Below are positions 5,691 through 47,427 of a DNA stretch of 64,000 nt, piece by piece (position 1 is the stretch's first letter; the number at the start of each line of letters is the position of its first letter). The translations under genes and the position numbers were made by a program. The stretch comes from a virus. The notes under the pieces were generated by a model that was not told the origin of the DNA, ran no database searches, and worked only from the letters and a program-made list of their open reading frames with translations. Where the stretch lies: the IMG/VR virus record IMGVR_UViG_3300046791_000499, positions 32,001 to 96,000 of that record; one strand, written 5' to 3'.

Positions 5691-6656
5691 GTGGACGAGC
5701 CGACAACGATCAAGCCGCTCAAGGTCAAGCCCGATCTCTCCGATCCCGAGATCCGAGAGTTCTGGAAAGCCGTGTTCCTCTCGTCGTGGGAGATGCCGAA
5801 CAGCGGGTACGGCACCTCGGTGAGCGTGGCCGATGACGCCGTCCGCGACCTGGTCGCGCGCGTGCAGCCACCGTCGAACGGGTTCCGCGAGATCGTCGAG
5901 CGGCCATCGACCACACGGCCACAGGGCTCGCCGGGCTGGGACGCACGGGCGCCGGAGGATGACGACTTCGAGCAGGCCGCCGCGCGCTTCGCTGCCGACC
6001 TCGCAACGTATCGAGGCGCGCTGGGTCGCGATGCGGTTCGCTCGCTCGCCCTGCCCGGGTGGGAGCACTTCGGCCTGCAGCTCGACTGGCTCGACACGAT
6101 GTTCGGGAAGCCTGAGCAGATGGCCGATCTCAGGGCGATGGCGCGCGAACTCGCCACCGCATCCGTGCTTGCCGATCTCGAATCCCTGCCCACGCTCATC
6201 GCCGAAATGTTCAGGTTACAAGGCAAGAGGCTGCTGGCCGCACATCGAATGGCCAGCCCCGAGCAGACGTCCTCACCCGAGCAAGCGCCCGAGATCAACG
6301 CCGAACCAACGCCAATCGAACCACTGCTCGTCACCTTCAACGTCGACCCGGATCGCTCCAAGCCTGGTCCGATCGATCCGGCCAAGCACCCAGACCACCA
6401 ACGGGTCTCGCTCGCCACCGCGCCAGCAAACGGCATGGTGAAGATCGGGAGGCTCCGCACGAGCCACATCCTGTTCGCCAATGAGTTCGTCGCTCGCATG
6501 CACGCCATGATCGAGCTGAGTTCCGAAGGCTGGCACCTGATCGATCTTGGGACAGAACGCACCACCGTCAACGGCATTGAGGTCACCCGCAACGCGCTTG
6601 TGAAGGTCGGCGACGTTCTCGGCTTCGGACCGTGCACGCTGACGCTCGACCCCTGA
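5691..6656 (+). CDS. chimeric protein: tape-measure C-terminal motif plus degenerate C-terminal FHA domain
   Basis: FHA-like VKIGR..H..VARMHAMIE..LIDLG..TVNG..VGDVLGFG; internal 26-aa segment 20/26 identical to the TMP C-terminus. Confidence 0.7.
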   Translation: MDEPTTIKPLKVKPDLSDPEIREFWKAVFLSSWEMPNSGYGTSVSVADDAVRDLVARVQPPSNGFREIVERPSTTRPQGSPGWDARAPEDDDFEQAAARFAADLATYRGALGRDAVRSLALPGWEHFGLQLDWLDTMFGKPEQMADLRAMARELATASVLADLESLPTLIAEMFRLQGKRLLAAHRMASPEQTSSPEQAPEINAEPTPIEPLLVTFNVDPDRSKPGPIDPAKHPDHQRVSLATAPANGMVKIGRLRTSHILFANEFVARMHAMIELSSEGWHLIDLGTERTTVNGIEVTRNALVKVGDVLGFGPCTLTLDP

Positions 6657-6660
6657 AACC

Positions 6661-6939
6661 ATGCCGACCGGGACACCATTCACGATGAAGTGCCCAGCCT
6701 GCCGGCGCGGCGCGTTCGGGCATGCATCGCCGGACCTCGGCGTGCGCAAGACCGGCCGTGTCGAGAAGCAGGTCACGCGATCGAAGCACCGCGGCACGGG
6801 TGGCGGTGGATGCTCGTTCCGAGGACACCGCGGCGAGGTCGAATGCCTGGACTGCGGGCACCGCTGGTACTCGACGCACCCCGACAGCGGGCGAGTGTCT
6901 GCCTCCAAAATCAACCTGGATGGCACGCCGTGCTCGTGA
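6661..6939 (+). CDS. small Zn-ribbon protein
   Basis: CPAC ... CLDCGHRWYS. Confidence 0.55.
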   Translation: MPTGTPFTMKCPACRRGAFGHASPDLGVRKTGRVEKQVTRSKHRGTGGGGCSFRGHRGEVECLDCGHRWYSTHPDSGRVSASKINLDGTPCS

Positions 6940-7238
6940 AGATCGGCAGGCGCAACGTCGACGTGCTCGACTCCGGCTGCGCGAAGCGTGAGTGTTTTGC
7001 GCTCGGGTTCGACAAGGGGTCCTTCTCAGTCGGCCGCGGCTACACCAGCTATCACACCGACGCGAAGGGCCGCCGGGTCGAGAAGCCCGTGTGCGGCACG
7101 AGGCACTACCGCGGGTGCCCGAGCAACAGCGTGTGCTCGGTGTGCCGCGCTGCGAGCGTCGAGCAACCAGGCGGCGACTGCCGTTACAAGAGCTGCGCGG
7201 GCAAACTCGTCGAACGCACGATCGTAGGGACACCATGA
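6936..7238 (+). CDS. Cys-rich hypothetical protein
   Basis: GTG start overlapping the upstream stop; multiple Cys pairs; ATGA overlap with the next gene. Confidence 0.5.
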   Translation: MKIGRRNVDVLDSGCAKRECFALGFDKGSFSVGRGYTSYHTDAKGRRVEKPVCGTRHYRGCPSNSVCSVCRAASVEQPGGDCRYKSCAGKLVERTIVGTP

Positions 7239-8002
7239 TCACTCGCCTCCGCATTACCGACCCCAAGCGCACGCCATGCGAATGGTGGCCAACCGTCGCA
7301 ACGCTGACCCCGCTCGAGCAGATCGAGTTCTCGCCGGGGTTGACCGTCATTTGGGGGCCGAATGGCTGCGGCAAGTCGACGATCTTGCGCGCGCTCGCTC
7401 GGCTGACGCACTGCGAACAGGCTGGCGTTCCCACCGTGACGGGGGACTCTCTCCGTGCGTTGAAGGGGTGCACCGGCGTCGAGATCGAGACCGACGGCAA
7501 GCCGGTGCACTTCTTCGATCCGGGGATGCGTGCTGGGCTCGTAGGCGGAATGGCCGGTTTCGATTACGACTTCTTCGATCTGTCTCTGCAGAGCATGGCC
7601 AGGGACAGGGTGTCGTCGGGGCAGAGTTCAACGGCCGAGTTCAATCGGATCCTGGCGTCGGCGGCCAAGACCTCGACGGTCGCCAGCAAGATCGGAAGCC
7701 AAGTACCACCGCCCGAATTCGTGCGAGGGCTGCAGCCAACGCCGGGGATCGACGCGGGCCTGCCTACGCTGCTGTTCGACGAGCCCGATCGGTCGCTGTC
7801 GATCACGAAAGCGGCCGACCTGTGGCACCTGCTGGCGCAGCAAAAGAAGTTCCAGATCATTGCGGCGTCCCACTCGATCAGCGCGCTCGGGCTTGGCCCT
7901 GCCGTGATGTACATCGACCTGGTGACAGGGTACCTCGCCGAGTGCATCGAAGAGGTTCGGCTTGTCGGCGGGCGGCTGAGCGCGGAGTCGAACACCCGAT
8001 GA
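7235..8002 (+). CDS. ABC-type/AAA_21-like ATPase
   Basis: Walker A GPNGCGKST, signature SSGQ, Walker B LLFDEPD, H-loop IAASHS. Confidence 0.8.
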   Translation: MITRLRITDPKRTPCEWWPTVATLTPLEQIEFSPGLTVIWGPNGCGKSTILRALARLTHCEQAGVPTVTGDSLRALKGCTGVEIETDGKPVHFFDPGMRAGLVGGMAGFDYDFFDLSLQSMARDRVSSGQSSTAEFNRILASAAKTSTVASKIGSQVPPPEFVRGLQPTPGIDAGLPTLLFDEPDRSLSITKAADLWHLLAQQKKFQIIAASHSISALGLGPAVMYIDLVTGYLAECIEEVRLVGGRLSAESNTR

Positions 8003-8601
8003 TCCTCACCGAACCATCGAAGCACCAGATCGTCTACATCGATTGCCCGTGGCCGCGCACGCCGTGCGGCACCGCCAAGACCCCGTACAACACGATGACG
8101 TGGGCCGAGTTACGCGCGTTCGATCTCGGCGCGTGGCTGGCCGACGATGCCCTCGTGTTCGCCTGGGTGACCGGACCGACGCACTTGAAGGAGTGCGCCG
8201 TGCTCTCGCATTGGTGCGAGCAGTTCGGCTTGTACGAGGCAGGCGTGCCATACATCTGGGTCAAGACACGCAAGGACGGCGTCACCCCGATCGGCGCGAG
8301 CGGCCCCCGGCCGAAGCTGGTCAAGCAACTCGGCGAGTTCGTGATCGCGTTGACCACCCGCAAGCGTGGTCGCGTGTTCCCGCTGTTGACCGAGGCGCAG
8401 GTCCAGTGGGTGGAAGACGGCACGATGCCCACCGAGGAGGTCTATGCACCGAAGCCGCCGCGTGGGTCGCATTCGCGCAAGCCGGCGATCGTACGCGACA
8501 AGATCGTCGAACTGGTCGGAGACCGATCGCGTGTCGAGATCTTCGCGCGCGATGAGCATCCCGGATGGAACGCCATGGGGGATGAGCTGATCGCAGCGTG
8601 A
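7999..8601 (+). CDS. MT-A70 family adenine methyltransferase
   Basis: IVYIDCPW (variant of DPPW), YNTMT, VFAWVT, IWVK, HSRKP, EIFAR..GWNAMGDE. Confidence 0.8.
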   Translation: MILTEPSKHQIVYIDCPWPRTPCGTAKTPYNTMTWAELRAFDLGAWLADDALVFAWVTGPTHLKECAVLSHWCEQFGLYEAGVPYIWVKTRKDGVTPIGASGPRPKLVKQLGEFVIALTTRKRGRVFPLLTEAQVQWVEDGTMPTEEVYAPKPPRGSHSRKPAIVRDKIVELVGDRSRVEIFARDEHPGWNAMGDELIAA

Positions 8602-8836
8602 CGCCGCAACGGCGAACGCGTAGACTTCTCGCATGGGGCTCGGCTGCTCGTTCTCAGTTCTGGTGTCGCACGACCACGGAGGTTGGCCACACCGGCATTG
8701 GGAGCGCAGCGACGGCACGCTGTCTCGAGCATTCGGTGTGAGCCGCCAGCCCCCTGTTGATCTGCGACCAGGCCAACGCGTTCTCCGAATCGTCCCGGCC
8801 AGCCCGCCGAATCACAGCAGCCGGCCGGTGGCCTGA

Positions 8837-10573
8837 ATGGTTGGCGGAACCCAAGCTGGCTGCGTCTACGATCCGAGGCCGTGTTCGTACGCGGACTGCC
8901 GCAAGCGCGTGCGCATGCCGACTGGGATCTGCGAGGGCTGCGGTGCTCGATTTCTCCGGCCCCAGCCTGGGCCCCAAGAACAGTTCCTCGAGTGCGAGGC
9001 CGACATCGTCCTCTTCGGCGGTGGGATTGGAAGTGGCAAGTCGATGGCGCTCCTGCTCGACGCGGGCTGCTACCAAGATCGACCTGGCTGGGTCGGAGCA
9101 ATCTTCCGCCACAACCACAAGGACTTGAAGGGCTCGCCGGGCGTCTTCGCCAAGGCGCGGAAGATGTATGGCGACTCGACCGAGCGCAGGTCTGGTCGAT
9201 CTCGGAAGCAACTCAACAAGAACGAGCAGGTCCGGTTCCGCGAATCGTCTCCGCTCGATCTCCGTTGGCCGGGCGGCGCGACGCTCGAGTTCCGCCATCT
9301 CGACGAAGAGAACTACCTCGACTACCAGGGCCTCGAGTACGCGTGGATCGGGCTCGAGGAGGCGACGCACTACGAGTGGCATTGGGTCCGGTACCTGATC
9401 ACGCGGCTCCGCACGGACTCAGGTGTTCGGACCCTCGTGCGCATGACATGCAACCCGGACCGGAACCACTGGCTGCGCGCGTGGGTGGACTGGTACCTGC
9501 TCCCGAACGGCTACCCGGACCGATCGAAGTCCGGCGTGATCCGGTACCTGGCGATCAAGGCGGGCACCGACGAGATCATTTGGGCGGGCACGCGTGAGGA
9601 GTGTGCGACGTTGGCCGGTCGCGAGCCCGAGGAGGTCATGTCCTTCTCGTACATCGCTGCCCTGTTCGACGACAACGTGATCCTGAAAGCGCTGGATCCC
9701 GGGTACGTCGCCAAGCAGGCGATGGCCGGAGCGGTCGATGAGGAACGCCTCCGTCACGGCAACTGGAATGCCAGCCACGACATCGGCGGGATGCTTCGCC
9801 GGGATCGTTGGGGTGGGGCCGAAGGGCAGCTCCGAAAGCCGCTCGCGCAGATCGTCAAATGGATCCGCCCGTGGGACAAGGCCGCCAGCAAACCGAGCGA
9901 TGCCTATCCAAACCCGGACTTCACCGCGGGCCCGCTCATGGGCTGGGACGTGCACGGCCGCTTCTACATCGCCGGGCTCGCTGCCTGCCGCGACGACGCA
10001 CCCGAGGTCACGACGCTGCAGCAGCGGACGGCAACGCTCGACGGCAAGCAGGTCACGCAGTGCGCCAAGCTCGGACCGAGCGACACCGGGAAAGCTGACC
10101 TCCTGACGAGCAAGAAGTCGCTCGCCATGGGAGGCGGTCCCGTCGTCGTCGCCAAGGATCGAGCGAGCAAGCCCGTCCGTGTCCAGCCCATGGCCGACGC
10201 TCTCGCGTGGGGGATGCGAGGCGACGTGGCAGCCGCGTCGGCCGACGACCCCGGGCAGTGGCTACCTCGTGGCTGGATCCTCAACCCGGATCCAGAGACC
10301 GCGGCCGAACTCGGGATCCCGCACTGCGCCGACTGGTTCAATCAGCCCTACAAGGACAGCGTGAACGAGACAGGCAAAGGCAAGGGGTCGCCGCCCGCAA
10401 CACTGGGAGATCTGTTCTGGTCGCAGACCGAGCCGTTCTTCGATCCCAAAGAGAAGAAGAAAGACGACATCCCAGACGCGATGGGCGATGGCTACTCCAA
10501 GTTGGCCGCGCCCCCACCGAAGCAACAGGAGAGCCCGCTCGAGCGGTGGCAGCGGTTCACCAAGGGCGACTAG
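8837..10573 (+). CDS. terL: terminase large subunit
   Basis: PQPGPQ..FL, Walker A GGGIGSGKS, Walker B IGLEEAT, motif C TCNP, nuclease WDKAAS..PDFTAG and KDDIPDA. Confidence 0.88.
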   Translation: MVGGTQAGCVYDPRPCSYADCRKRVRMPTGICEGCGARFLRPQPGPQEQFLECEADIVLFGGGIGSGKSMALLLDAGCYQDRPGWVGAIFRHNHKDLKGSPGVFAKARKMYGDSTERRSGRSRKQLNKNEQVRFRESSPLDLRWPGGATLEFRHLDEENYLDYQGLEYAWIGLEEATHYEWHWVRYLITRLRTDSGVRTLVRMTCNPDRNHWLRAWVDWYLLPNGYPDRSKSGVIRYLAIKAGTDEIIWAGTREECATLAGREPEEVMSFSYIAALFDDNVILKALDPGYVAKQAMAGAVDEERLRHGNWNASHDIGGMLRRDRWGGAEGQLRKPLAQIVKWIRPWDKAASKPSDAYPNPDFTAGPLMGWDVHGRFYIAGLAACRDDAPEVTTLQQRTATLDGKQVTQCAKLGPSDTGKADLLTSKKSLAMGGGPVVVAKDRASKPVRVQPMADALAWGMRGDVAAASADDPGQWLPRGWILNPDPETAAELGIPHCADWFNQPYKDSVNETGKGKGSPPATLGDLFWSQTEPFFDPKEKKKDDIPDAMGDGYSKLAAPPPKQQESPLERWQRFTKGD

Positions 10574-10791
10574 TCCTTGATGTCCAGCAGCTTGCGTGTG
10601 AAGGCGTGAAGTTCGGTCACCACGAGACGACGGCATCGCATCTCAGCGACGTGGACATCGGGGTCGCTGACGTTCGGCGTCACGCTGATCACACCGCGAA
10701 AGTGTCGGCACGCGTTGACGAGCGATTCCACGTCGTCATCTCGCATGTCGTGGTCGAGCACCAGGGTGAGGCTGTGGATCCTGTCGGTCAT
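10570..10791 (-). CDS. hypothetical phage protein
   Basis: Compact ORF with ATGA overlap and GGAGG RBS. Confidence 0.6.
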   Translation of the reverse strand: MTDRIHSLTLVLDHDMRDDDVESLVNACRHFRGVISVTPNVSDPDVHVAEMRCRRLVVTELHAFTRKLLDIKD

Positions 10792-11249
10792 GCGGCCTCC
10801 TCATCTGCGAGTTTGCTCAGCCGTTCGATGATGGTCCTGAACACCCGGCCGATCTCGAACTGCGCGAGCGGCCGGCTCGAATGCCACTCCAGCAAGACAC
10901 GCCCATCCTGGCCGGAGCCGACATCTGTCAACGACGCCGTCCACTGACCACGGCGCCCGAGGGTCTTACCGGTCACGTGCAGGACATCTGCGGTGGCCGA
11001 TGTCAGCCCGATCGGATCCTTGGCGTCGGGGCATTTTACCAGTAGTTGGATGGCGACGCGGCCCCACTCGGAGGCCGTCAACGCCACGGACTCGGGCTCA
11101 TCGTCTTCGCCGGGTTGGTCGTCATCCTCGGGCTCAGCCGGGAGCACCCGGAACGTGTAGCCTTCCTTCTCGGCGACGAGCACAACCCGCTGACCATCCT
11201 CGGTGGTGAGCAGGTCGATCGGTGGTGGGGTCGGCTTCGAGCGGGCCAT
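10788..11249 (-). CDS. hypothetical protein
   Basis: ORF coupled to the downstream gene; typical codon bias. Confidence 0.55.
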   Translation of the reverse strand: MARSKPTPPPIDLLTTEDGQRVVLVAEKEGYTFRVLPAEPEDDDQPGEDDEPESVALTASEWGRVAIQLLVKCPDAKDPIGLTSATADVLHVTGKTLGRRGQWTASLTDVGSGQDGRVLLEWHSSRPLAQFEIGRVFRTIIERLSKLADEEAA

Positions 11250-11469
11250 GCGAGCACGACCAGGCTGCCGGCCGTCTCATTCCTGGATCATCCTCGGTAG
11301 TCTTCTCGGGCACGAACGACCGGCCAATAATCGGGCCGAAACAATGGCACGCGATCCCAATGCTGGACCGGACATGCACAACTCGCAGCGAGCAGTTCCC
11401 ACCTGCCGCCACGTAGCCTGCGCCACGTCTTGAGATCGGAGAGTAAACAATCGAGTAGGAACACCTGGT

Positions 11470-13254: not shown

Positions 13255-13329
13255 GAGACACCAACCACGCCGGCCTGCAGGATCTTCCCGGTTCGGGAAT
13301 GCCGACGCCCTCGGCCTGGTCGGTGCGGC

Positions 13330-28668: not shown

Positions 28669-28859
28669 AGGTGACCTCGATCCATGTGGCTTTCCTCCGC
28701 CGGCTCGACGATGGCGAGCGCATCTCAGCCGAGTGGGTGGCTCCCGAGTTGGCCGATCTCGCGATATGGGGGCTTGCGTCTTGGGCTGACGACATCGCCA
28801 TCACGCCGGCAGGCCGGGCCGCGCTCGCGCTCTACGAGATGGCGAGGCAGCAGACATGA
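28665..28859 (+). CDS. small hypothetical protein
   Basis: GGAGG RBS; ITPAGRAAL wing motif. Confidence 0.55.
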   Translation: MKVTSIHVAFLRRLDDGERISAEWVAPELADLAIWGLASWADDIAITPAGRAALALYEMARQQT

Positions 28860-30019
28860 AGGCCAGCCACGGCGAGGCGCTGGTACGGTGGCGCGAGCAG
28901 GCGGCTCAGATGATCGTGCGCTCCGGCGCTTGCTGGAACGTCATGACCGGACCCATCCACGGCATACACGATCGGACCGTGACCGCGGTGCTCGACGGCT
29001 CGATCCGGTTCGACGTCGAACGCGTCCGAACCAAGTGCGAGAAGCTCATCGCGGAGAGCAAGGCCGCCGAGGAGACGTGGGTCGTGTACACCGACTGGCT
29101 GCGAGCGTGCGGCTGGCACGAGGGCCTGGTCGCCGAAACGTACCAGCGCATGTTCCAGCACTTGCCCACGCGGTCCAAGGCCGAACGCCTCGCGCGAACG
29201 GCCATCCTGCGCGCTGGCGTCGGCCTTCTCGGGCGTTGCTTCGGTCCCGAGCACGAGGCCCTGCGCGACCTGTGGGCGGCCGGACCCGGCCAAGGCAAGC
29301 GGCCGGTGATGCCTGCCGACGCGATCGCCACCGCTCGAACCGCTCGACGCTTGCTCGCCACGCTCGAAGGTCGATGCCCGTGGGCTCGCCTCGCGAGCGC
29401 GCAGTCGAGCAGGTGCAAGACCTGCCATGGCGAGGGCGAGTTCTTCTCGACCGCGGCGCCTCGAGACGAGCATGGGATCATGGGCATGGCGAAGTGCCCA
29501 GAGTGCCGCACGACCGGCCACAACCTAGCCGGGTTCCTCCCGCCGCTCGAGCACACGCCGGCTCTCCTCCGCCACGCGCGGGACATTCAAGACCGGGCTC
29601 GACCCGGCCGCGGCTTGCCACGGTGGATGCTCGCCCTCGGGGTCACCACGGCGGACGCCACACGGTGGAAGGGCGAGACCCGTGTCGGGATGCGGCGCGG
29701 CGCGAGCGAAGAGTTGCCCGATGACCAACGCGTGGCCGAGCGGGAGCGCCACCGCGATCTTCTCGCGCATCGGTCAATGGAAGGGCACACCACCCGCCAG
29801 ATCGAAGGCGAGATCCGGCATCTGCGGATCCAGGTCGAGCGAGCCCACCATCGCATCCAACGAGGCGCCGAAGACGAATGGTGGCAGCGGATCCGCGCGA
29901 CGGTCGATCCGATCCTGGCCGGCACCGAGAGGCCGCGCCGGGAGAGCGATCCGGCCACGGTCATCCTGCCCGGCCAGATCCGCCCGATCTCGGTCTCCGC
30001 CACGTTCGAGATCGAGTAG
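28856..30019 (+). CDS. hypothetical protein with DnaJ-type Zn finger
   Basis: CKTCHGEG ... CPECRTTG. Confidence 0.6.
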   Translation: MKASHGEALVRWREQAAQMIVRSGACWNVMTGPIHGIHDRTVTAVLDGSIRFDVERVRTKCEKLIAESKAAEETWVVYTDWLRACGWHEGLVAETYQRMFQHLPTRSKAERLARTAILRAGVGLLGRCFGPEHEALRDLWAAGPGQGKRPVMPADAIATARTARRLLATLEGRCPWARLASAQSSRCKTCHGEGEFFSTAAPRDEHGIMGMAKCPECRTTGHNLAGFLPPLEHTPALLRHARDIQDRARPGRGLPRWMLALGVTTADATRWKGETRVGMRRGASEELPDDQRVAERERHRDLLAHRSMEGHTTRQIEGEIRHLRIQVERAHHRIQRGAEDEWWQRIRATVDPILAGTERPRRESDPATVILPGQIRPISVSATFEIE

Positions 30020-30057
30020 GCCCGGAATGCGCCCGCGTTCACGCCGGTCTGGCGAGC

Positions 30058-33174: not shown

Positions 33175-33255
33175 CCAACTCACGCCGGCCACGTGCCGCG
33201 TTCCCTGTGCATGCGGACCCACGCCTTGCTGGTCTGCTTGGCAACATTACGCCGG

Positions 33256-33498: not shown

Positions 33499-33832
33499 CC
33501 GCCGAAGCATAGCCACGCGTCAGGACACGGCTCAAGTCACGCCGGCCACGTGCCCCGCTGCCGATGGTTGAGCGCCCAAGCACCGAGCGGGGAGCGGGGA
33601 ACGTCGAGCAGATCGGGCCCGCCTGCATCGCTCGCATGTGCCCGTGGGCCAGTACGGCGCGAGCTGAACCGCTGTTTCTATGCCCTTGGTGGCGTCGAGC
33701 CGCGCCAGCTAGGCGCTCCCAATGAGCCGGTCGATTCCAATTCCAGCCTCTGGCAAGAGTACGCGACCGCAGCGGATGCGCACTTTGCCGCCAACGAGCA
33801 GTGGCGAAACTGGTGGTCGCGCGCCTGAGCGA

Positions 33833-34306
33833 TCAGACCGGCCATGTTCCGCGCTCGCGGTGCTCGACCACCCACCGACCGAGCGTGCTGCGAGGGATCT
33901 CCAGGAGCCGAGCGGCCCTGCGGATCGAGCCGGCCGCACGGACGATCTGCGCGAGCAGGTCAGCCTCCATGTGGGCCCAGTCGCCGATCGCGATCACGAA
34001 CTCGTCCGGGATGCCGGGCGGATCGACACCCATCGCTCGCATGCCCGCGCCATAGGGCCCGTGAGCAAGCACGGCGCACGCCCCATCGAAGGCCATCCAC
34101 GCGGCTCGGCATGCGTCCTCGTGAGTTTTGAACCCCGCGCGAATGCACGAGCGCCGACCGACGCGGCCGATGTACAGCCAGTGATCCGGGCGCCCGTGCT
34201 CATCATCGAGATCGGCGCCCGTCATGACCTCGAATCCGTGCGGCGGTTCGATGCCGCGGCGATCCGGGAACGGCTTGGTCGCGGGCTTGGGCTTGGGCTT
34301 AGCCAC
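33833..34306 (-). CDS. protein with C-terminal Fis-like HTH
   Basis: AGSIRRAARLLEIPRSTLGRW. Confidence 0.6.
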   Translation of the reverse strand: MAKPKPKPATKPFPDRRGIEPPHGFEVMTGADLDDEHGRPDHWLYIGRVGRRSCIRAGFKTHEDACRAAWMAFDGACAVLAHGPYGAGMRAMGVDPPGIPDEFVIAIGDWAHMEADLLAQIVRAAGSIRRAARLLEIPRSTLGRWVVEHRERGTWPV

Positions 34307-36102: not shown

Positions 36103-36435
36103 TCACGGAGGAGGCACCCACGGCTTGGCGCTGCCGTCGTTGAACGTCTCGGGAGGCACGCGACGCGGAAGCACTGACCGCTCGGCTCCGCACTTGTGGC
36201 AGTCGGGTGTCGGCGCGGCTTCGGCCCAGTCTGGGATTGCGGCAACGTGCATGGCTTGGTACCCGCACGCCGTGCATTGCCCCGGGTAGGATAGCCATTC
36301 GGTCCCCGGCCACGGTCGGCGCTCCGCCATGTTGATGATGTCGGCGCCGCCGTGCCGGTTGGGATCGGTCCATTCGACCAGCACCGCAACACACTCGGCC
36401 AGCGCCTCGGCGTCTTCGTCGTCTTCGTCGATCAC
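36103..36435 (-). CDS. Zn-ribbon hypothetical protein
   Basis: CTACG ... CHKCG. Confidence 0.55.
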   Translation of the reverse strand: MIDEDDEDAEALAECVAVLVEWTDPNRHGGADIINMAERRPWPGTEWLSYPGQCTACGYQAMHVAAIPDWAEAAPTPDCHKCGAERSVLPRRVPPETFNDGSAKPWVPPP

Positions 36436-36447
36436 GGATCCCCAAGA

Positions 36448-36642
36448 CTAGTCGCCGGTGGAAGCATCGACGGCAGCAACCCCGAGTTCGACGTCACCAA
36501 CCGCGCCGCTCGCCGCCTCGGCCGTGAAGTCGCCTTTGCGAGCCCGCTTGCGTGTCTTGGCCACGCTACGCTCACAGAACTGTTCCCAGTGGGCACAATT
36601 CTCACCCTCACACCACAAAGTAATCTCGCGCGTATAGCTCAC
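36448..36642 (-). CDS. small chimeric ORF: Zn-finger-like N-terminus fused in frame to a 27-aa baseplate-protein segment
   Basis: MSYTREITLWCEGENC...RKRARKG then DFTAEAASGAVGDVELGVAAVDASTGD*. Confidence 0.5.
   Translation of the reverse strand: MSYTREITLWCEGENCAHWEQFCERSVAKTRKRARKGDFTAEAASGAVGDVELGVAAVDASTGD
36449..36532. repeat. 84-bp direct repeat, copy 1 (copy 2 at 46056-46139)
   Basis: 82/84 identical by direct comparison; both mismatches are synonymous. Confidence 0.95.
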
Positions 36643-36715
36643 AGGTTCGTGTCCTTCAACATGAGTAGTTCGTGGGCTTGGACGCCGAGCACCGATCCAC
36701 GCATACATCGCGGGT

Positions 36716-39287: not shown

Positions 39288-39291
39288 CCGC

Positions 39292-40392
39292 ATGGCCGAG
39301 CCTCCGAGCAGCGTGTGGCGTTTTTCCGGCGGCTGGCTGCTGTGGCGCGTCGCCGACGAGATCGACAGACGACAAGCGACTATCGTCCCGGGCTCGCGGC
39401 CCTGCCGTGCGTGCGGAGGCCGTGGGACATTTGCGGAGTGGGGGCAACAGGAGGTTGGGTTCCTGTTGCCCGATGCCACGGGATTGCCCAGGAGCCTCGC
39501 CGACCGCGAGACGATCATCGGCCGAGAGATCCGGTGGGACCGGGTACTCGTGTGTGATTGCGTGTTTCCGTTTTCGTCGCCAGACATCCGCCCGGAATGC
39601 CCGACGCGTCCAGACACGGTCTCGCTCGCGTGGCTCGTGGGGTTCCTCGCCGAGCTGCCCAAGCCAGCATTCGATTGGCCGGCTCAGTGGCTCGTCGATC
39701 TCGACTGGCGCGAAGCCCAAGGCGATGACTCATGGCAGGCTGTTTGGTGGGCGGAGTTCATGGCCTGGACGCGCGGTGCGGCGATCGACGTCGACCGTCT
39801 CCAGCGTGCGCTCGATGATGCTTACCTCGCGGAGCGTTTGAAACTCGCTCACGCGAACCGGCAGCCGTCGATCGCCGCAGCCGTTCGAGCGGTCGTGGGC
39901 GTGACGAGTGTCTGCGTGCTCGAGAACCGGGTCAGCGGGGACCCGGCCGAACGCTCACTCGAAGTACTCGTTGAAGGCGGCGAGGACGAAGCCGTTGCCG
40001 CGGCGATCTACTCGTCGATGCATCGGGGCATTCCGCTCATCGGCACGGTCTCGGTGATCCTCGAAGGTTCCCCAGCGCTCGGGCTCTGGGATGACTCATG
40101 GGCGGAGGTCAGGTTTTCGCGGCCGTCGTTCTCGGTCGTGTCGCATGGTGGCCTGGACGTCACGTGGACCGCTCACAACGTGGCCGTGATCAAACCGATC
40201 GCGGCCCAGGGCTGGAACTACTGGGGCTACTCGCTGGCGATCGATGAAGAGGTTGTCACCGTCATGTCCACGCCTGGCATGGATGTGTGCGCGCTGCTGC
40301 GCGATGGCATCTACCAGAACCCGGTGCTGGCCAACCGGGTGACCGCGGTCGCGGACAGCAGGACCCTCACCCTGACCAGGGTCGACGGCTAG
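39292..40392 (+). CDS. chimeric protein: Zn finger, baseplate-J C-terminal-like domain and sheath-insertion-like domain
   Basis: CRACGGRG; AAAVRAVVGVTSVCVLEN..LEVLVEGGEDEAVAAAI...VRFSRP aligns with this phage's baseplate J. Confidence 0.65.
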   Translation: MAEPPSSVWRFSGGWLLWRVADEIDRRQATIVPGSRPCRACGGRGTFAEWGQQEVGFLLPDATGLPRSLADRETIIGREIRWDRVLVCDCVFPFSSPDIRPECPTRPDTVSLAWLVGFLAELPKPAFDWPAQWLVDLDWREAQGDDSWQAVWWAEFMAWTRGAAIDVDRLQRALDDAYLAERLKLAHANRQPSIAAAVRAVVGVTSVCVLENRVSGDPAERSLEVLVEGGEDEAVAAAIYSSMHRGIPLIGTVSVILEGSPALGLWDDSWAEVRFSRPSFSVVSHGGLDVTWTAHNVAVIKPIAAQGWNYWGYSLAIDEEVVTVMSTPGMDVCALLRDGIYQNPVLANRVTAVADSRTLTLTRVDG

Positions 40393-40593: not shown

Positions 40594-40623
40594 GACCCGG
40601 GGCGGACGAATCCACCCCGGGTC
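40594..40623 (-). terminator. stable hairpin with UUCG tetraloop downstream of 40657-41160
   Basis: Minus strand GACCCGGGGTGGA-TTCG-TCCGCCCCGGGTC (13-bp stem including one G-U); no U-tract. Confidence 0.5.
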
Positions 40624-40656
40624 TTCGGGTCGATCGGACGGTCACCCGCCCGCACC

Positions 40657-41160: not shown

Positions 41161-41435
41161 CGTGGTGTCGACCGCGGGAGAGCGGCGGCTATTCCGGCCA
41201 ACTGGAGATGAGAGAAAGCTCGCACGCTGATCGGCTACGAAAAGTGAACCGTCCAGCCCCTGCCGTCACTGGTGCTGCATGGACCCCGTCGACCTCGCCC
41301 ATGACCATTGCTTTCAATCTATCCGATGCGCACTCGGCTTCGCATCATGGCACGAGCGGCTTGGCCTGTGGCTGGACGGCACGCTGACGCTGGCGGATCT
41401 GCGCAAGGCCCGGAGGTCTCGGCGCCAAACAGTGG

Positions 41436-41780: not shown

Positions 41781-42108
41781 GAGCGCACAGTACCACGGCC
41801 GCAACACCATTGCGCCAAACGGGACGCAGCGCCACTGCGGTAGTACTGAATCGAACCTTGAACCCCTAACATGTGAGTTGTTAGGTGAACTATGCATATC
41901 ACCAACGCGGTGTCCGCAGTCACTTTCCGCGCACCGCGATTCGCACGGATTGCGCTCGGCGGTGATATGGGGCGATAGTCGCACGGCGAAACCGCTACCC
42001 GGTGCCTCCGCCGTGGCGATCCAGGTTGGGAGATGGCCAGGCCGCGAGGTTGGAATCGAACATCCTGCGATCCGGTAGCGAGCGCGAACCCCAAGAACGA
42101 ACCACACC

Positions 42109-43065
42109 ATGAACATTCATACCATTGCAACTATCGTCACCCTGCTCACGACCTTGGCCTGCGTGCCACCGGCATCCGAGTGCATGGGTGAGTGTGCTGA
42201 ATCGATCGACACCGAGGGCACCGAGTCTTCCGGCGATGGAGATGGCGACCAAACCGGGCCAGGCGATGGCGACGGCGAGCCGACCACCGATACCACCGGC
42301 GATGGAGATGACACCGGCGACGGAGATGGGGACGGCGATGGCGAGCCCGAGTGCGGCAACGCGGTGCTCGAGCCGGGCGAGCAGTGCGACGACGGCAACC
42401 TGCTCACCGGCGATGGATGCTCACCCGTGTGTGTGCTCGAGCCGGATGCGATCCCATGCGGCGACTCCATCTACGAGTGCGGCGACGGAGTCGACAACGA
42501 CAACGACGGCAAGACCGACATGGCCGACTCGAACTGCACGAGCCCATGCGACGACGACGAGAACTCACTGCTGACCTTGCCCGGCCAGGATGGCGACTGC
42601 GAGAAGGACTGCTTTTGGAACAATGGAGCCGACGCTTGCAGTTGGAACCTGACATGCGATCCCGACAGTCCAGGTGCCGACATCGGGTGCGAGTACGATC
42701 CAGCCGGCGGCCAATGCAATTTCGAGCAGACCCAGGAGTGCGTCGACTCCTGCTTGCCGCTGGTGCCCAACGCCTGCGACTGCTTCGGGTGTTGCCAGGT
42801 CGACGGGCTGTTCATCTACCTCGACTCGAACCCCGAGTGCTCGATGGACAACCTCGGCGCGTGCAACACGTGCACGTACTTCTACGGGTGCACCAACGAC
42901 TGCATCAAGGACGACTGCGAGTTGTGCTTCGGCGAGACGATCGATGAACTGCCGATGGGCTGTGCCGAGCCGAGCTGCGATGTCGGCACGCCGTGCGGAG
43001 AGCAGAGCGACTGCAACGATGGCGACTTCTGCCAGACCGGGTGCTGCGTTCCGATCCAGGGCTGA
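42109..43065 (+). CDS. myxobacterial Cys-rich exported/lipoprotein (Myxococcus Cys-rich repeat), moron
   Basis: Signal/lipobox TLAC, GDGDGD low-complexity tract, CGNAVLEPGEQCDDGN..GDGCS..C, CGDGVDNDNDGKTD. Confidence 0.8.
   Translation: MNIHTIATIVTLLTTLACVPPASECMGECAESIDTEGTESSGDGDGDQTGPGDGDGEPTTDTTGDGDDTGDGDGDGDGEPECGNAVLEPGEQCDDGNLLTGDGCSPVCVLEPDAIPCGDSIYECGDGVDNDNDGKTDMADSNCTSPCDDDENSLLTLPGQDGDCEKDCFWNNGADACSWNLTCDPDSPGADIGCEYDPAGGQCNFEQTQECVDSCLPLVPNACDCFGCCQVDGLFIYLDSNPECSMDNLGACNTCTYFYGCTNDCIKDDCELCFGETIDELPMGCAEPSCDVGTPCGEQSDCNDGDFCQTGCCVPIQG
42232..42342 (+). repeat. coding GGCGAT/GGAGAT (Gly-Asp) microsatellite-like tract
   Basis: Encodes the GDGDGD repeats. Confidence 0.8.
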
Positions 43066-43072
43066 ATCAAGC

Positions 43073-43108
43073 GAACGAGCCGGCCCATTGCAGCGGGCCG
43101 GCTCGTTC
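43073..43108. terminator. hairpin between the convergent moron and tail fibre genes
   Basis: Perfect 14-bp inverted repeat GAACGAGCCGGCCC/GGGCCGGCTCGTTC. Confidence 0.8.
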
Positions 43109-43138
43109 AAGGAGGTTGGCGGTCGGGCTCTACCCGGC

Positions 43139-45163
43139 TTAGTAGACACCTTTGACGGTCAGAACGATGTCGTACCAATCGACGGTTGCCGAGAAGTCGA
43201 GCCGCACTCGGAACGTGCGCTGGGCTGCGGTCGGCAACGTGTACTTCTTCCGAAACGTGAACGGCATCATTCGGCCCGTCGTCCCAGCGCCGTCAATGTC
43301 CAGCGAGTTGAGCGGCTGAGAAGTAGCCACGGTGACCGACCCCGTGACGTCCTTGAGCAGAATGGTCATCGTCGTGGTGTCGGTTCGTCCGTTCCACATT
43401 CCGGTGACCTCGACAAGCACAACGCCGGTTACCTCCGGTGTGATCACGGCGTCCGCGACATCGCCAGTTGTGCCGACGTTGGAGCCGTCGGTTGTGGTGC
43501 CGTCGCCGTGCACCCAGCCCTTCGTAGAGCTGTGGATGCTCTCGTACGCTGCGCCGTTGTGCGTCCGCCACTTCACGCGGCTCGAGTTCAAGAACAGCGA
43601 GCCGGCCTGCGTCGTCGTTGGATCCGAATCCACAGGCACAACGACAAGCGGGGAACGCTTTGGTGCCGTTGCGTCCGTCTCTAGCTTCGCCGCATTGCCG
43701 TCCACGCTCAAGGCGTAGAGTGCGTTTGCATCTCCGAGTCCCAACGCGGCAATCCCAACGCCGCTCGAGGTAGCAGCAGCGGATGAAGTGCCCACGACAC
43801 CCACTGCACCAGTATTGACCGCGACGCCCTTGACTCCGTAGCTGGTCGCGTTGTTGAAGCCCGTCCCGAGAACGCCGTTGACGCCGGCGCCGGTGCCTAC
43901 ACCCACGAGACCGCCATTGCCTGTGAACGGCTCGCTGCAGGACATCGTGCCGATTACCGCGATGATGTCGCCAGCCGCGTTGCCGAGCGTCGACGATCCA
44001 TTCAGCGCCGTTGCCCCGGTGACGGTGAGGGCGGCAATCGTTGCCGCAGCCAAGCAGTCGAAAGTATCAGCCGTGCTCGTCCCGATCGTGCACGTGAAAG
44101 CGCCAGACCCAATGCAGAGCGAGACATCGTGGCCGGCAGTCAAATATCCATCGGTGGAAATGCCGACGGTGGAAATGACGTTGCCTCCGACGATGACGTT
44201 GTATCCGAATGATCCGCTGTATGTGACGTTGAGATAGGCGTCCGTGGAGATGTTCCCGGCCGCATGCACCACGGTGCTCGAGTAGACACCGTTGTAGCCA
44301 AGCACGCTGTTGGCGACCATCGCCTGATCGATGTTGACGTTCTCACCGAAGTGGACGTCGCCTCCGATGGTCTCGAGCACGATCCCGGGTCCACCGAAAT
44401 CGTTGTGGAAGGTGGCCGTGGTGTCGGTCGCCGAGTTGTTGGCCACGGACAACGCCGGCCCGCCGTTGGCCCCGATGAGAACCGAGGCAAGTTCCCCCAC
44501 GAGCGGAGCACCCGTGACGATGAGTGCAGCATCGGCCGGCACCGTGATGGTCACCAAGTCGGTGAAATTCGTTTGGCCTGAGACCGTCAGTTCCTCGGCG
44601 CCGATCGACTTGTGCGTTGGGATCTCGGGCACGAGCACCGTCGCAGCGGTGACGTTCGCGCCGTCGGTCTCGATTTTCCAGATGGCCACATAGCCCGCGG
44701 CAGGGACCGGCGCACCCGCTCCGTTGTTGACTTCCTGGTACGCGACCAGCCCCGCCTCGTTGAGATTGACGTAGGTGTCCTTGCTCGCCGTGAAGGCGTG
44801 CGGGCTGCCAATCGCGACCGTGAACTGCACGACCACGCCGCCGTCATCGTTGGCGTCGACCATCACCCACGACGCGGTGATCGAACTGCTCAATCCCGCG
44901 CCGGTGGTCCACGCGCCCGAGGTCGGGAAGACGAACGTACCGAACAGGCCAGCCGACGACGGGACCATCCGCGAGATGCCCATCGCCCGGATCCACCGCG
45001 CGAGATGCTGCCACTCGTAGTTGACCGTGCCCGACGGCAGAATCACGGAGCCGAGACCGGCAGCCTCCTCGGCAGGCACGGCGAAGGGTCCGCCAGATTC
45101 TCCCCACGTGGGCTCGTCGTAGGTGTCGTCCGGGTTGACTGGGATATCGGTGACGGCGGTCAT
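43139..45163 (-). CDS. tail fibre / receptor-binding protein
   Basis: Follows the baseplate genes; G/T/A/V-rich beta-repeat body (GNISTD, GVxG repeats). Confidence 0.75.
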   Translation of the reverse strand: MTAVTDIPVNPDDTYDEPTWGESGGPFAVPAEEAAGLGSVILPSGTVNYEWQHLARWIRAMGISRMVPSSAGLFGTFVFPTSGAWTTGAGLSSSITASWVMVDANDDGGVVVQFTVAIGSPHAFTASKDTYVNLNEAGLVAYQEVNNGAGAPVPAAGYVAIWKIETDGANVTAATVLVPEIPTHKSIGAEELTVSGQTNFTDLVTITVPADAALIVTGAPLVGELASVLIGANGGPALSVANNSATDTTATFHNDFGGPGIVLETIGGDVHFGENVNIDQAMVANSVLGYNGVYSSTVVHAAGNISTDAYLNVTYSGSFGYNVIVGGNVISTVGISTDGYLTAGHDVSLCIGSGAFTCTIGTSTADTFDCLAAATIAALTVTGATALNGSSTLGNAAGDIIAVIGTMSCSEPFTGNGGLVGVGTGAGVNGVLGTGFNNATSYGVKGVAVNTGAVGVVGTSSAAATSSGVGIAALGLGDANALYALSVDGNAAKLETDATAPKRSPLVVVPVDSDPTTTQAGSLFLNSSRVKWRTHNGAAYESIHSSTKGWVHGDGTTTDGSNVGTTGDVADAVITPEVTGVVLVEVTGMWNGRTDTTTMTILLKDVTGSVTVATSQPLNSLDIDGAGTTGRMMPFTFRKKYTLPTAAQRTFRVRLDFSATVDWYDIVLTVKGVY

Positions 45164-45172
45164 GGTGATCGG

Positions 45173-46216
45173 CTATGGGTCGGTGGCGAGCGTGAACGCG
45201 AGGACATCGGGTCCGTCGAGTGCGCTTTCGTCGAGGGTGAAAACATCGGGTGCAGCTTCGGGCGAGAACACCAGCACCATGCGAACGCCGTGCGGGCGCC
45301 CGCGGTAGAGCACGTCGAAGTAGGTTAGCGCCTCGTTCTCGGTCAGCTCGAAGAAGTAGACGACGTAGGTCAGCGGGTCGGGGCGCTCGAGCAACCACGT
45401 CTGCGCTCCGTTCACCAACCCAGCGGCCAAGGCTTTGGTGACCGATGGCTGGCGGTTCGTGCCCACAGCCCCGTCGATCGGAACGAGCACGTTCTGATAC
45501 CTCTCGTCGCTCCAACCGTCCGGGCGGAGGAAACCGAGGTCGCGCCCGAGAGCGTCGAGATGCACTCCGATCGCAGTCAGGACCGAGCCCACCCGCCAGC
45601 GAACCTCCCACGATGATGCGAGCAGCTCGCCCACCGCTGCCGTGAGCACGGCCTGCCACACCTGGATCTCTGGGTCCTTGACCAGCGGCGGGCGCATGGT
45701 CTGGAACCACCGCGTATTCGGATCCACGGGGTTCTGTGCGTAGATCGGATCGCCGATGATCTCGATCGTCGTGGCCAGCGGAACGGTCGTAGTCGACCCC
45801 CACGGCGACCACAGGATCCGCATGTGGTACGCGGTGATGCCATCCTGTTCGTTCGTTTCCCAGTCCGTGGGCATCGACCAGCGGATCGAAACCACGCCCG
45901 TCTCGGTCAGCGCTGCGGTCGCGTCGACCAGGTTGGGCAGCTTCACCCATGCGCTGCCGTTCCAATACTGGTACGCCAACCCGCTGGTCCCGAGGAACGC
46001 GGTCGAGATGTCGATCTCGATCTCGACGAAGGGGTAGGTCCAGCCGACCACGAAATAGTCGCCGGTGGAAGCATCGACGGCAGCAACCCCGAGTTCGACG
46101 TCACCCACCGCACCGCTCGCCGCCTCGGCCGTGAAGTCGGTCCAGATGTCGCCGTCCTCCTGGAACAGCCGAGCGCTCACTGGGTAGTTGGTGAAGTTGT
46201 CGTAGGCGTCTGTCAT
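45173..46216 (-). CDS. baseplate wedge (DUF2612-like) with N-terminal beta-sandwich domain
   Basis: TAIGVHLDALG..GF.RP..SDERY; N-terminal YQYWNGSAW domain; position after J. Confidence 0.7.
   Translation of the reverse strand: MTDAYDNFTNYPVSARLFQEDGDIWTDFTAEAASGAVGDVELGVAAVDASTGDYFVVGWTYPFVEIEIDISTAFLGTSGLAYQYWNGSAWVKLPNLVDATAALTETGVVSIRWSMPTDWETNEQDGITAYHMRILWSPWGSTTTVPLATTIEIIGDPIYAQNPVDPNTRWFQTMRPPLVKDPEIQVWQAVLTAAVGELLASSWEVRWRVGSVLTAIGVHLDALGRDLGFLRPDGWSDERYQNVLVPIDGAVGTNRQPSVTKALAAGLVNGAQTWLLERPDPLTYVVYFFELTENEALTYFDVLYRGRPHGVRMVLVFSPEAAPDVFTLDESALDGPDVLAFTLATDP
46056..46139. repeat. 84-bp direct repeat, copy 2 (source, inside the baseplate gene)
   Basis: Matches 36449-36532 at 82/84. 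Confidence 0.95.
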
Positions 46217-46218
46217 TC

Positions 46219-47427
46219 CTACGCTCCGGTCACGGTGATATCGGTGAGTTCGTTGTCGATGGCGAACTGCTCACGAACCGCGGCCTCGAGTGTGCCCGTG
46301 TTCACCGGCGGGTCAACGATGTCGACCTCGACCACGATGTTGTCGATGCCGGGGATCCCCGCGTTGTTGTTCACGTAGGCGGCGATCTTGAAGCCGCTGG
46401 TGTTCTCGCCGGGAACGAGCGCCTCAACGTAGGTCACGACGGCTGCCCGGATCGCTGTCTCCCGAGCCGCAATGGCCTCGACGCTCATGTCGCCCGGATA
46501 GCCCTCGCCCTTGGTGATCGTGACCTCGATGTAGATCGCCACGAGTTCGGGGCGCGAGAACTTGATCGTGACCTGGCCGCCGACGTAGTCCGCGTCGATG
46601 ATCCCCACAATCGTGTTGCCGACCGTGTTGACGCCCTTCGCACGCGAGGCTTGGATCGCGGCGGCGACCGCATCGTCGTCGCCACCCACGACCAGGACTT
46701 CGACCCAATGCGTGAGGCCCCAGTAGGCGTCAGGGGTGTTGGTCGGGTTCTCGAGCAGCGAAGCCGAGGTCACCCCCGCGACCGCGCGCACGGCCGCGAT
46801 CATGTTGCTGAGCAGCGCGTCTCGCCACCGCTGCCGATACTCGGCGTCGGTCTCGTCGCTGCGGCCTGGGATCGCATCGGCGACGTTGGGCCCGACTGAA
46901 AGCCAGCCCGTGACCGGCGTCAGGATCGTCCAGTCGGACGCCGCGATCGCTGTCTTCGGTCCGGTCTCGAAGTACTCCCATGTCCCGTCGATCGTACCAC
47001 CGCCAGGGATCGTCACCGCGCCGACCAGCGCCCACGCGCCGGTCTCGTCAGCGAGCGCCACGGTCTGGCCAGCCGGCACGTTGACGTTGGGCCCCACCGC
47101 GGCGAACAGCGGCAGCACGACGGTGCTCCCCACGGCTGCCAGCTTCGGACCGATCCTCGGGGTCAGCAGCAGTTCGAGGCTTGAGCCCTCGGCGACGCCG
47201 TTGGTGCCGGGAGCCGCCGAAATGAACTTCGAGTTGTAGTTGCCCGCGCCATCATCCCACGCGTCCTTCATGACGTTAGCGAAGGTGCGCAGGAGGTCCG
47301 CTGCAGGGCCGTTCTCGACGTCGATGTTGGCGCTGGTCTCGGCCTTGTACTTGTTCTGCAGGTCGAGCAGGACCATGTCGTAGGTAGCCGGCAGCCAGCC
47401 GGTTGTCGTGTCATAGCCGAAGGACAT
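46219..47427 (-). CDS. baseplate J-like protein
   Basis: AEGSSLE, I.TPVTGW..V, GRSDETDAEYRQR, V.GGDDDAVAAAI, IKFSRP. Confidence 0.88.
   Translation of the reverse strand: MSFGYDTTTGWLPATYDMVLLDLQNKYKAETSANIDVENGPAADLLRTFANVMKDAWDDGAGNYNSKFISAAPGTNGVAEGSSLELLLTPRIGPKLAAVGSTVVLPLFAAVGPNVNVPAGQTVALADETGAWALVGAVTIPGGGTIDGTWEYFETGPKTAIAASDWTILTPVTGWLSVGPNVADAIPGRSDETDAEYRQRWRDALLSNMIAAVRAVAGVTSASLLENPTNTPDAYWGLTHWVEVLVVGGDDDAVAAAIQASRAKGVNTVGNTIVGIIDADYVGGQVTIKFSRPELVAIYIEVTITKGEGYPGDMSVEAIAARETAIRAAVVTYVEALVPGENTSGFKIAAYVNNNAGIPGIDNIVVEVDIVDPPVNTGTLEAAVREQFAIDNELTDITVTGA

Follow-up and report, generated by a model that had tools for sequence, protein, structure and literature searches.

Tail-protein-like modules of different age and origin in accessory proteins of an uncultured soil phage, two of which may dock on the phage's own tail

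IMG/VR virus record IMGVR_UViG_3300046791_000499 is a complete 143,093-bp genome with direct terminal repeats that comes from an uncultured virus in a soil metagenome. We analyzed bases 32001-96000 of this record (64,000 nucleotides, or nt, called the window here; GC content, about 65%), in which three accessory open reading frames (ORFs) carry segments resembling the proteins of a contractile tail. The protein g008 carries a helix that resembles the C-terminal tip of the tape measure protein (TMP), g052 carries a subdomain of the baseplate wedge protein J next to a zinc ribbon, and a short ORF contains 27 amino acids (aa) of g057, a protein encoded close to the baseplate genes. Judging from the sequence comparisons, this finding is a mix of three things that differ in age and origin. 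The two old modules, the TMP tip of g008 and the J-like domain of g052, are putative docking modules for the phage's own tail, a reading to which we assign a probability of roughly 45%.

Results

Three tail-like segments in accessory ORFs

The window and the whole genome were compared with themselves by blastn, blastp, and tblastn, and Smith-Waterman alignments with shuffled sequences were used to obtain z scores. All three segments were recovered in the window and genome self-comparisons at the positions given in Table 1, the Smith-Waterman alignments agreed, and the similarities were far beyond chance. An initial annotation had described the segments as in-frame copies of this phage's own tail-protein pieces that together form one system. 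The segments are indeed real, but only two of them are derived from this genome. The description as the phage's own pieces fits the 84-nt copy encoding the g057 residues and the TMP tip, whereas the J-like domain matched foreign J proteins equally well or better. Moreover, the three carriers are unrelated proteins and the ages of the copies are very different, which argues against a single system. The whole-genome comparison added further tail-like modules, one in the protein G142 (a sheath insertion domain) and possibly one in g038 (a 17-aa sheath motif). Recurrence of such modules in accessory proteins was thus confirmed. The same comparison also brought up a terminase-like copy.

g008 carries an old copy of the tape-measure tip

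g008 is a well-coding gene situated among DNA-modification genes. Residues 158 to 185 of g008 matched TMP residues 897 to 924 at 20 of 28 positions (pairwise E 3e-9), and Smith-Waterman alignment extended this match to residues 142 to 185 versus 885 to 924 (z 11.6), in agreement with the proposal that the C-terminal tip of the tape measure had been copied. Over the 28 aligned codons, there were 13.5 synonymous differences at 21 sites (pS 0.64) and 12.5 nonsynonymous differences at 63 sites (pN 0.20). The resulting dN/dS of about 0.16 (Fisher p 1e-4) indicates purifying selection on the captured segment. With synonymous sites near saturation and a low pN, the duplication is an old one, and selection has kept the encoded peptide nearly alike in g008 and in the TMP.

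The nearest foreign TMP was found in a single lineage (L035/L036, with records that are 9-14% complete) and was 51% identical over its last 141 aa. This TMP keeps the block before the helix (RIFD...GPGSVLEGRPPPQTLLITIAP), but its terminal helix is dissimilar and gave no match to g008. Thus, the g008 helix tracks the TMP lineage of the present phage rather than a generic TMP motif, and the module appears to be a lineage-specific copy from the phage's own TMP. g008 itself had no homologue other than itself among 5.8 billion proteins and none in single-protein scans of viral contigs, and the ESM Atlas returned nothing usable for g008 or for the N-domain of g052.

A probably flexible linker of about 60 residues, with abundant Pro, Glu, and Ser, separates the helix from an FHA domain. 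The closest counterpart of this domain is the FHA region of myxobacterial GltG (NCBIfam model, E 2.4e-11), and it is predicted to be a host-like phosphothreonine-binding domain. Where myophage tail structures have been solved, hub and spike of the baseplate clamp the C-terminal helix of the TMP. The TMP of phage Mu is ordered at its C-terminal tip only; this tip forms a trimer tightly held by hub and spike, and stable baseplate assembly was concluded to depend on it (PMC11915804). The most economical reading of the g008 helix is that of a putative element that binds the hub and spike or joins the TMP bundle and that would tether the FHA domain.

g052 carries an ancient J-family module

g052 aligned with residues 208 to 298 of the baseplate protein J with 39% identity over 95 aa (z 14.5). 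A profile built from six true J proteins matched g052 (Table 1) and also matched two g052 homologues, P0004 (E 2.7e-15) and P0028 (E 2.5e-5). Only profile positions 217 to 312 of 411 were matched in g052, so that the full-length J architecture is absent. J homology, as initially annotated, was thus upheld, but the piece corresponds to the middle alpha/beta subdomain and not to the C-terminal domain. All 14 residues that are invariant among the six true J proteins are kept in g052, and 12 of the 14 are kept in P0004. The fold of the J-like part matched TssG/TssF, diffocin, Streptomyces contractile injection system (CIS), and Mu baseplate chains with Z scores of 4.5-6.7. A phmmer search with g052 also retrieved J proteins, two of which (P0030 and P0035) carry PF04865; direct searches with Pfam and PHROG models gave no match to g052 at E <=0.01.

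We then considered the origin of this domain. g052 scored 60.5 bits with the foreign P0030 and 58.2 bits with the foreign P0037, versus 51.6 bits with the J protein of its own phage, and identities were 35-41% to own and foreign J proteins alike. A maximum-likelihood tree of the J-like domains had bootstrap values below 50 at key nodes. The J-like domain of P0004 gave no match to the J protein of its own phage at E 1e-3. Since foreign J proteins scored as well or better, the g052 domain was not captured from the J protein of this phage, and we regard it as an ancient module of the J family. Residues 183 to 281 of g052 are homologous to the middle subdomain of the J/gp6/TssF wedge proteins (PF04865 and phrog_6), but g052 differs from these proteins in several respects: it has only about 100 J residues, the N-terminal part of J is replaced by the Zn-ribbon, its gene is not part of the tail operon, being found on the opposite strand at a distance of about 6 kb from J, and close homologues of g052 have no J-like domain.

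A sheath-like domain had also been proposed for g052. No similarity to the sheath of this phage was found (Smith-Waterman z 0.2; hhalign probability 0.1); the C terminus showed a weak fold resemblance to the sheath chains of other phages (Z 5.1-6.6 over 55-58 residues). The helical core of g052 was predicted with a pLDDT of >90 by AlphaFold2. The N-domain had generic helical matches but no clear fold match, and Foldseek against the PDB returned nothing for the g052 model at E <=0.001.

A family of Zn-ribbon proteins accepts tail-type inserts

An exhaustive phmmer search with g052 gave 35 matches in 1.84 billion representatives. About 30 of these share the N-terminal 190 residues, and five are true J proteins that match at residues 165 to 350 or so. 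On this evidence, g052 belongs to an undescribed phage Zn-ribbon family of about 30 clusters. Neither this family nor G142 had a Pfam, PHROG, NCBIfam, or PADLOC match. The N-domain alignment found nothing in viral contigs or genome contigs, nor did the single-protein scan of viral contigs. The repeat-companion domain TIGR02996 was sought in G142, g052, g038, and G123, with no NCBIfam/TIGRFAM match at E <=0.1. The knuckle of g052 and the second pair of G142 are similar to the CxxCxGxG zinc fingers of the DnaJ type (DnaJ central domain and anti-TRAP RtpA), but the Trp-rich helical surround of the g052 family has no known relative. Weak DnaJ_CXXCXGXG or RtpA matches were also seen in g038, G123, and P0045, all below the curated cut-offs.

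The family members P0004 and P0005 lie at the same place in two phages, between a Dit-like and a Pam3_gp18-like gene, and the tail proteins of these phages are 92-99% identical. P0004 and P0005 share their N and C parts, and the J-like insert is present in P0004 only. P0028 and P0018 are found in nontail gene contexts. Taken together, these contexts point to a variable accessory locus and to a J-like domain that comes and goes within the family. The fusion of a J-like domain to a Zn-ribbon scaffold is therefore not unique to this contig, being present in P0004 and P0028 as well, whereas g008 is an orphan with no counterpart in other phages.

A second family member, G142, was found beyond the window end by a six-frame genome search. 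The match covers positions 8 to 156 of the N-domain profile and includes the LxWALxxE(I/L)D and CxxC motifs. Between its conserved N and C parts, G142 has an insert that matches residues 105 to 183 of this phage's sheath (z 8.6-9.9). The homologues P0042 and P0044 lack the insert, and P0046 has a similar one, probably also the sheath insertion domain. Hence, tail-type inserts occupy the same position in two subfamilies of a single scaffold family. g038 is a possible further case. A 17-aa motif in this protein (29867-29917) resembles sheath residues 355 to 371 (12/17 aa, 69% nt) within a borderline 36-aa alignment (44% identity, z 6.5, E about 2e-3). Two things are new here: a Zn-ribbon scaffold family in which contractile-tail domains were found repeatedly, and a selected TMP-tip copy fused to FHA.

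With regard to the neighborhood of the g052-family genes, no conserved small partner gene was found next to them, except for a G141-like ORF in two phages. An ORF of 95-97 aa, rich in Cys and His, adjoins the Zn-ribbon family gene in both phages in which it was observed (L030:17530-17823, plus strand; L003:9717-10004, plus strand; 59% identity).

The 84-nt copy is recent and probably neutral

The third segment was detected by blastn as an identity of 82 of 84 nt between 36449-36532 and 46056-46139 on the same strand (E 2e-34). The copy lies in frame in its recipient ORF, the encoded 27 aa are identical to g057 residues 27 to 53, and both nucleotide differences are synonymous. The initial annotation had named the donor a DUF2612-like baseplate protein. 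The identity of the 27 aa stands, but g057 had no DUF2612 match and no other match in Pfam, PHROG, NCBIfam, or PADLOC. A beta-domain with a YWNGSAW-like motif makes up residues 17 to 156 or so of g057; it was seen in 18 viral contigs, frequently as tandem repeats, and also in the sheath of phage L003. Alignments of this domain reach back to residues 20 to 25 and cover residues 20 to 53; thus, the copied segment is native to g057. The copy spans only the first 27 residues of the beta-domain of about 135 aa, which is about a fifth.

The coding signal of the recipient ORF is weak. Its own 36 codons have a GC content of 0.56 and a GC content at third codon positions (GC3) of 0.64, versus about 0.8 for typical genes here. 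No paralogue or homologue of this 64-aa ORF was found, and Pfam, PHROG, NCBIfam, and PADLOC gave no match. The repeat is not an artefact of one assembler, since an independent Logan assembly of the source run had three contigs meeting inside the two 84-nt copies, with both junctions of the 36449-36532 copy present. In another study (run X4), one contig skips 255 nt containing the small ORF and the copy. This absence fits a lineage-specific insert, but it is a lead only, coming from a single low-depth contig (depth 3.6, with 61 nt on the shorter side).

Two synonymous changes, with one copy in a constrained structural gene, give little information on selection. The 84-nt copy appears to be a very recent intragenomic duplication by illegitimate recombination and is probably neutral. 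Neutral illegitimate recombination had been offered as the simple alternative for all of the copies; it suits this youngest one, whereas the selection on the TMP-tip copy speaks against it.

Copying is not confined to tail proteins

According to the initial annotation, no captured segment came from capsid proteins or enzymes. This holds within the window. In the whole genome, a 205-aa ORF located before the window start resembles the ATPase domain of the terminase large subunit. Its Walker A segment is not conserved, and the ORF looks like a packaging ATPase domain that was copied and has lost its catalytic activity. Copying is thus not confined to tail proteins. By hand count, tail-related pairs made up about 4-5 of about 12 intragenomic pairs, versus about 2.5 expected from the share of the tail module in the genome. 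This excess is suggestive, not significant.

Discussion

Docking on the phage's own tail

The docking reading starts from what was observed directly, namely, the homologies, the ages of the copies, the selection on the TMP-tip copy, and the recurrence within the family. If this reading is correct, the modules would have kept the interface of the tail protein from which they derive and would thereby recruit their carrier to hub or wedge of the same phage while the tail is being assembled. A docked carrier might then travel in the virion or set the timing of assembly. That the modules bind partners in the tail, and that the carriers act there, is inferred; in favor of docking are the purifying selection on the TMP-tip copy, the different helix of the foreign TMP, the role of the TMP tip in phage Mu, the 14 of 14 invariant J residues, the recurring inserts in the Zn-ribbon family, and the lack of an integrase. 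Docking would offer a simple and evolvable way of addressing accessory proteins to the tail, by copying a structural interface, with a new Zn-ribbon scaffold family that accepts such modules. It would also bear on the delivery of proteins with phage DNA and on the countering of tail-targeting defences such as Tab and Tai. Without docking, the genome would still provide a clean case of intragenomic copying at three ages, from 98% nucleotide identity to protein-only similarity.

Several points weigh against docking. The invariant residues kept in g052 may reflect fold stability rather than a kept interface. g008 is an orphan, so there are no homologues in which the helix could covary with the TMP tip. 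Both g052 and g008 lie outside the tail operon. The terminase-like copy without a Walker A segment suggests a general accretion of paralogues that is not tail specific. Finally, the sheath insertion domain and the g057 N-domain are peripheral decoration domains, which are promiscuous in phages, so that sharing them need not mean docking. Small peripheral beta-domains (decoration or Ig-like) move between sheath, wedge, fibre, and other phage proteins. Similar behavior is seen for the g057 N-domain, which forms tandem arrays and recurs in the sheath of another phage, and for the sheath insertion domain, which recurs in G142. The recipients here, however, are nonstructural Zn-finger proteins instead of other virion proteins, and neither the TMP tip nor the J subdomain is a decoration, both being parts of an interface or core.

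That decoration domains move, as the g057 N-domain did into the sheath of another phage, is also an argument for neutral mosaicism alone, i.e., duplication, illegitimate recombination, and domain shuffling, with reusable folds that have no tail role in accessory proteins. The youngest copy indeed looks neutral, the excess of tail pairs is not significant, and the genome contains other dispersed repeats and partial paralogues (the terminase-like ORF and, as described below, a 76-nt inverted pair, a third terminal-repeat copy, and a segment shared by a spike-type and a head protein). Nevertheless, the TMP-tip copy is a short helix and no fold unit, yet it kept its 20 of 28 residues while synonymous sites became saturated. 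The J-like domain keeps every family-invariant residue, and tail-type inserts recur at one position in two subfamilies. We thus consider an entirely neutral origin unlikely, while giving it serious weight.

The main idea of the initial annotation was that the fusions might act as dominant-negative mimics and thereby poison the assembly of baseplate or TMP in coinfecting related myophages, in an exclusion resembling that by Tab and Tai. Blocking of tail assembly is an established defence, and the modules are interface-type parts of tail proteins. According to two reports (PMC10884400 and PMC11364771), Tab and Tai are tail-assembly blockers made by prophages, phage-inducible chromosomal islands (PICIs), or P4-like satellites, the specificity of Tab maps to the TMP C terminus, Tai escape mutations map to tail-tip proteins, and Tab prophages and some Tai-positive phages have a counter-defence that spares their own tails. 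The modules described here are likewise encoded by a mobile element and, under this idea, would act on tail assembly. They differ in being homologous to tail proteins, whereas Tab and Tai are not described as tail-protein copies in the consulted parts of these reports. Tab and Tai, as presented there, are also made in uninfected cells by prophages or satellites, each with a counter-defence gene as its partner. Searches of the complete, terminally repeated genome of the present phage, with positive controls, found no tyrosine or serine recombinase (PF00589 or PF00239), and PADLOC gave no match. The phage is thus probably virulent, with no lysogen to protect. In addition, the TMP-tip copy matches the phage's own TMP best, so that the producing phage would be the first victim of a poison. 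No target specificity is evident for the J-like domain, which is equally distant from every J protein, and g008 is an orphan. Poisoning of competitors is accordingly disfavoured and seems quite improbable; the lack of any sign of lysogeny and the fit of the TMP tip to the own TMP make us prefer docking.

The same features might suit decoys that act in counter-defence, in which the modules would imitate tail surfaces bound by host or prophage defences (for example, Tab-like blockers) and soak up the inhibitor or sensor. A protective decoy should match the phage's own TMP best, as the g008 helix does, and a virulent lifestyle, which is probable here, would also suit. Even near-identical phages differ at the hypervariable g052-family locus, as they would at arms-race genes. 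Sensitivity to Tab is set by the C-terminal part of the TMP (PMC10884400) and escape from Tai by mutations in tail-tip proteins (PMC11364771). Such decoys remain rather improbable, given that PADLOC found no defence or anti-defence family, that no cognate inhibitor is known in the putative Myxococcota hosts, and that a simple decoy would have no obvious use for the FHA and Zn-ribbon parts.

The phage also encodes a sigma-70/extracytoplasmic function (ECF)-type factor, and a promoter-like motif, GGAAT-N17-18-GTY, is enriched in the window (16 sites versus 5.4 expected). By a logic resembling that of FlgM, the Zn-ribbon carriers could bind a regulator, for example the phage sigma factor, and tail intermediates would sequester the carriers through their tail-like domain, so that gene expression would be coupled to assembly. 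None of the carrier genes is next to the sigma gene, searches matched no anti-sigma family, and placement of the motif near g052 and the small ORF is uninformative on timing. This purely speculative idea is very improbable, more so than poisoning.

Tethering of cargo (FHA or Zn finger) to the virion, a secondary idea of the initial annotation, remains viable and is compatible with docking. In its boldest form, the tail-interface copies (TMP tip, J wedge subdomain, and sheath insertion domain) would be address tags that load FHA and Zn-ribbon cargo on or into the contractile tail, to be delivered into the host with the tape measure. Address tags load cargo into virions and contractile injection systems, as do the T4 capsid targeting sequence and the cargo leaders of extracellular CIS (eCIS) and PVC. 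g008 resembles these in that a short module is joined via a flexible linker to an unrelated cargo domain. We know of no address tag that is a copy of a structural protein's own interface. Full delivery of this kind seems about as improbable as the decoys; if true, a phage would load cargo in a way that parallels eCIS and type VI secretion systems (T6SS), and the recipient host would probably be a member of the Myxococcota.

Genome context and other repeats

Megablast of the tail region gave no matches, and a search of a phage collection matched neither the tail region at the nucleotide level nor g052 at the protein level. Terminase, J, and sheath were at best 25-35% identical to annotated phage proteins. 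The phage thus represents a lineage without a close cultured relative. Searches confirmed a minus-strand tail module (Table 1), and the initial annotation of the hub and of J was borne out by PHROGs.

Table 1. Positions of the tail-like modules, their carriers, and related features (window coordinates unless marked as genome)
Feature	Position	Strand	Remarks
g008, 321 aa: unknown N-terminal region, TMP-tip-like helix, linker, C-terminal FHA	5691..6656	+	GC3 0.81
TMP-tip-like module of g008, residues 142-185 (core 158-185)	6114..6245	+	Core 20/28 aa, 72% nt
FHA domain of g008, residues 250-313	6429..6650	+	PF00498 42.7 bits vs cut-off 20.7, E 7.8e-11
TMP C-terminal tip, residues 885-924, source or counterpart of g008 module	50845..50964	-	
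g052 (P0003), 366 aa: Zn-ribbon N-domain, J-like subdomain, small C-terminal beta-domain	39292..40392	+	Start agrees with homologues
N-domain of g052, residues 8-196	39313..39879	+	CxxCxGxG + CxC zinc ribbon in Trp-rich helical domain; alignment A2
J-like alpha/beta subdomain of g052, residues 183-281	39838..40134	+	J profile E 1.6e-23
Counterpart subdomain in J	46534-46806	-	
84-nt copy of g057 codons 27-53	36449..36532	-	82/84 nt; TAG stop formed exactly at junction
64-aa ORF, Cys/His-rich N part, recipient of 84-nt copy, doubtful gene	36448..36642	-	GTG start 36642 after GAAGGA; called by Logan gene caller
255-nt stretch (small ORF + copy) skipped in one contig of a relative	36431..36685	.	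Run X4 contig joins 36430 to 36686
g057, 347 aa, baseplate/fibre-proximal, between J and 674-aa fibre-like protein	45173..46216	-	Donor of 84-nt copy (46056-46139)
G142, second Zn-ribbon family member	genome 113825-115015 (L030:17825-19015), beyond window end	-	N-domain profile E 1.9e-5
g038, Zn-finger protein with CxxCxG-type motifs	28856..30019	+	Possible further case
Baseplate J-like wedge protein, 402 aa	46219..47427	-	phrog_6 E 6e-24; tblastn matches to annotated baseplate J proteins
gp25-like wedge protein	47431-47802	-	PHROGs
Hub	48035-49078	-	PHROGs
Spike-like tail protein	50027-50815	-	Spike-type N-domain
Tape measure protein (TMP), 934 aa	50812..53616	-	PF20155 TMP_3 above cut-off; between tail chaperone region and hub/spike genes
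Tail sheath, 458 aa	55464..56840	-	tblastn matches to annotated sheaths
Sheath insertion domain, residues 105-183	56292-56528	-	Homologue in G142 (outside window)
205-aa ORF, terminase-like	genome 28463-29080 (L010:773-1390), before window start	+	Terminase large-subunit residues 50-275, 26%, pairwise E 1e-16

A host among the Myxococcota is a reasonable, putative guess from the GltG-like FHA domain of g008 and from a repeat in g055 (42109-43065, plus strand). The latter protein contains the myxobacterial cysteine-rich acidic repeat TIGR02232 above the cut-off (E 6.6e-13), especially at 42340-42430, and hundreds of unrelated soil contigs pile onto the repeat region. A 36-nt palindrome (43073-43108; 89% self-complementary), probably a bidirectional terminator, separates g055 from the 674-aa fibre-like gene where the two genes converge.

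The accessory ORF G153 and its counterpart at L007:3933-4445 are 53% identical, although identity between the tail proteins of the two lineages is only about 25-30%. Together with the Cys/His-rich ORF of 95-97 aa, this pair suggests that the lineages exchange accessory genes.

Sites of the GGAAT-N17-18-GTY motif are found, for example, at 11258-11283 and 41170-41195 on the minus strand and at 30024-30049 on the plus strand, and some end 8-9 nt before a start codon. None of 100 shuffles reached the observed number of sites. The sigma-70/ECF-type factor is encoded at genome 133344-134192 (L042).

The terminal repeat (genome 1-127 and 142975-143093) has a third, internal copy of 127 bp at genome 22862-22988 that is 100% identical and that could be a real rearrangement or an assembly problem. 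A 76-nt inverted pair with 88% identity is located at genome 138135-138210 and 140183-140258, one arm lying in ORF G167 and the other being intergenic. A further partial copy of this possibly regulatory element covers 37 nt at genome 122419-122455.

Residues 163 to 235 of the spike-type tail protein share a 73-aa segment with residues 538 to 603 of a 1165-aa head polyprotein (62783-64000 onward, minus strand; 33%, E 2e-3). Lastly, the final 21-24 residues of a 157-aa ORF (33833-34306, minus strand) recur at the ends of short frames at 33540-33611 (62%) and 33186-33248 (52%), and these frames form a small family with a common C-terminal motif.

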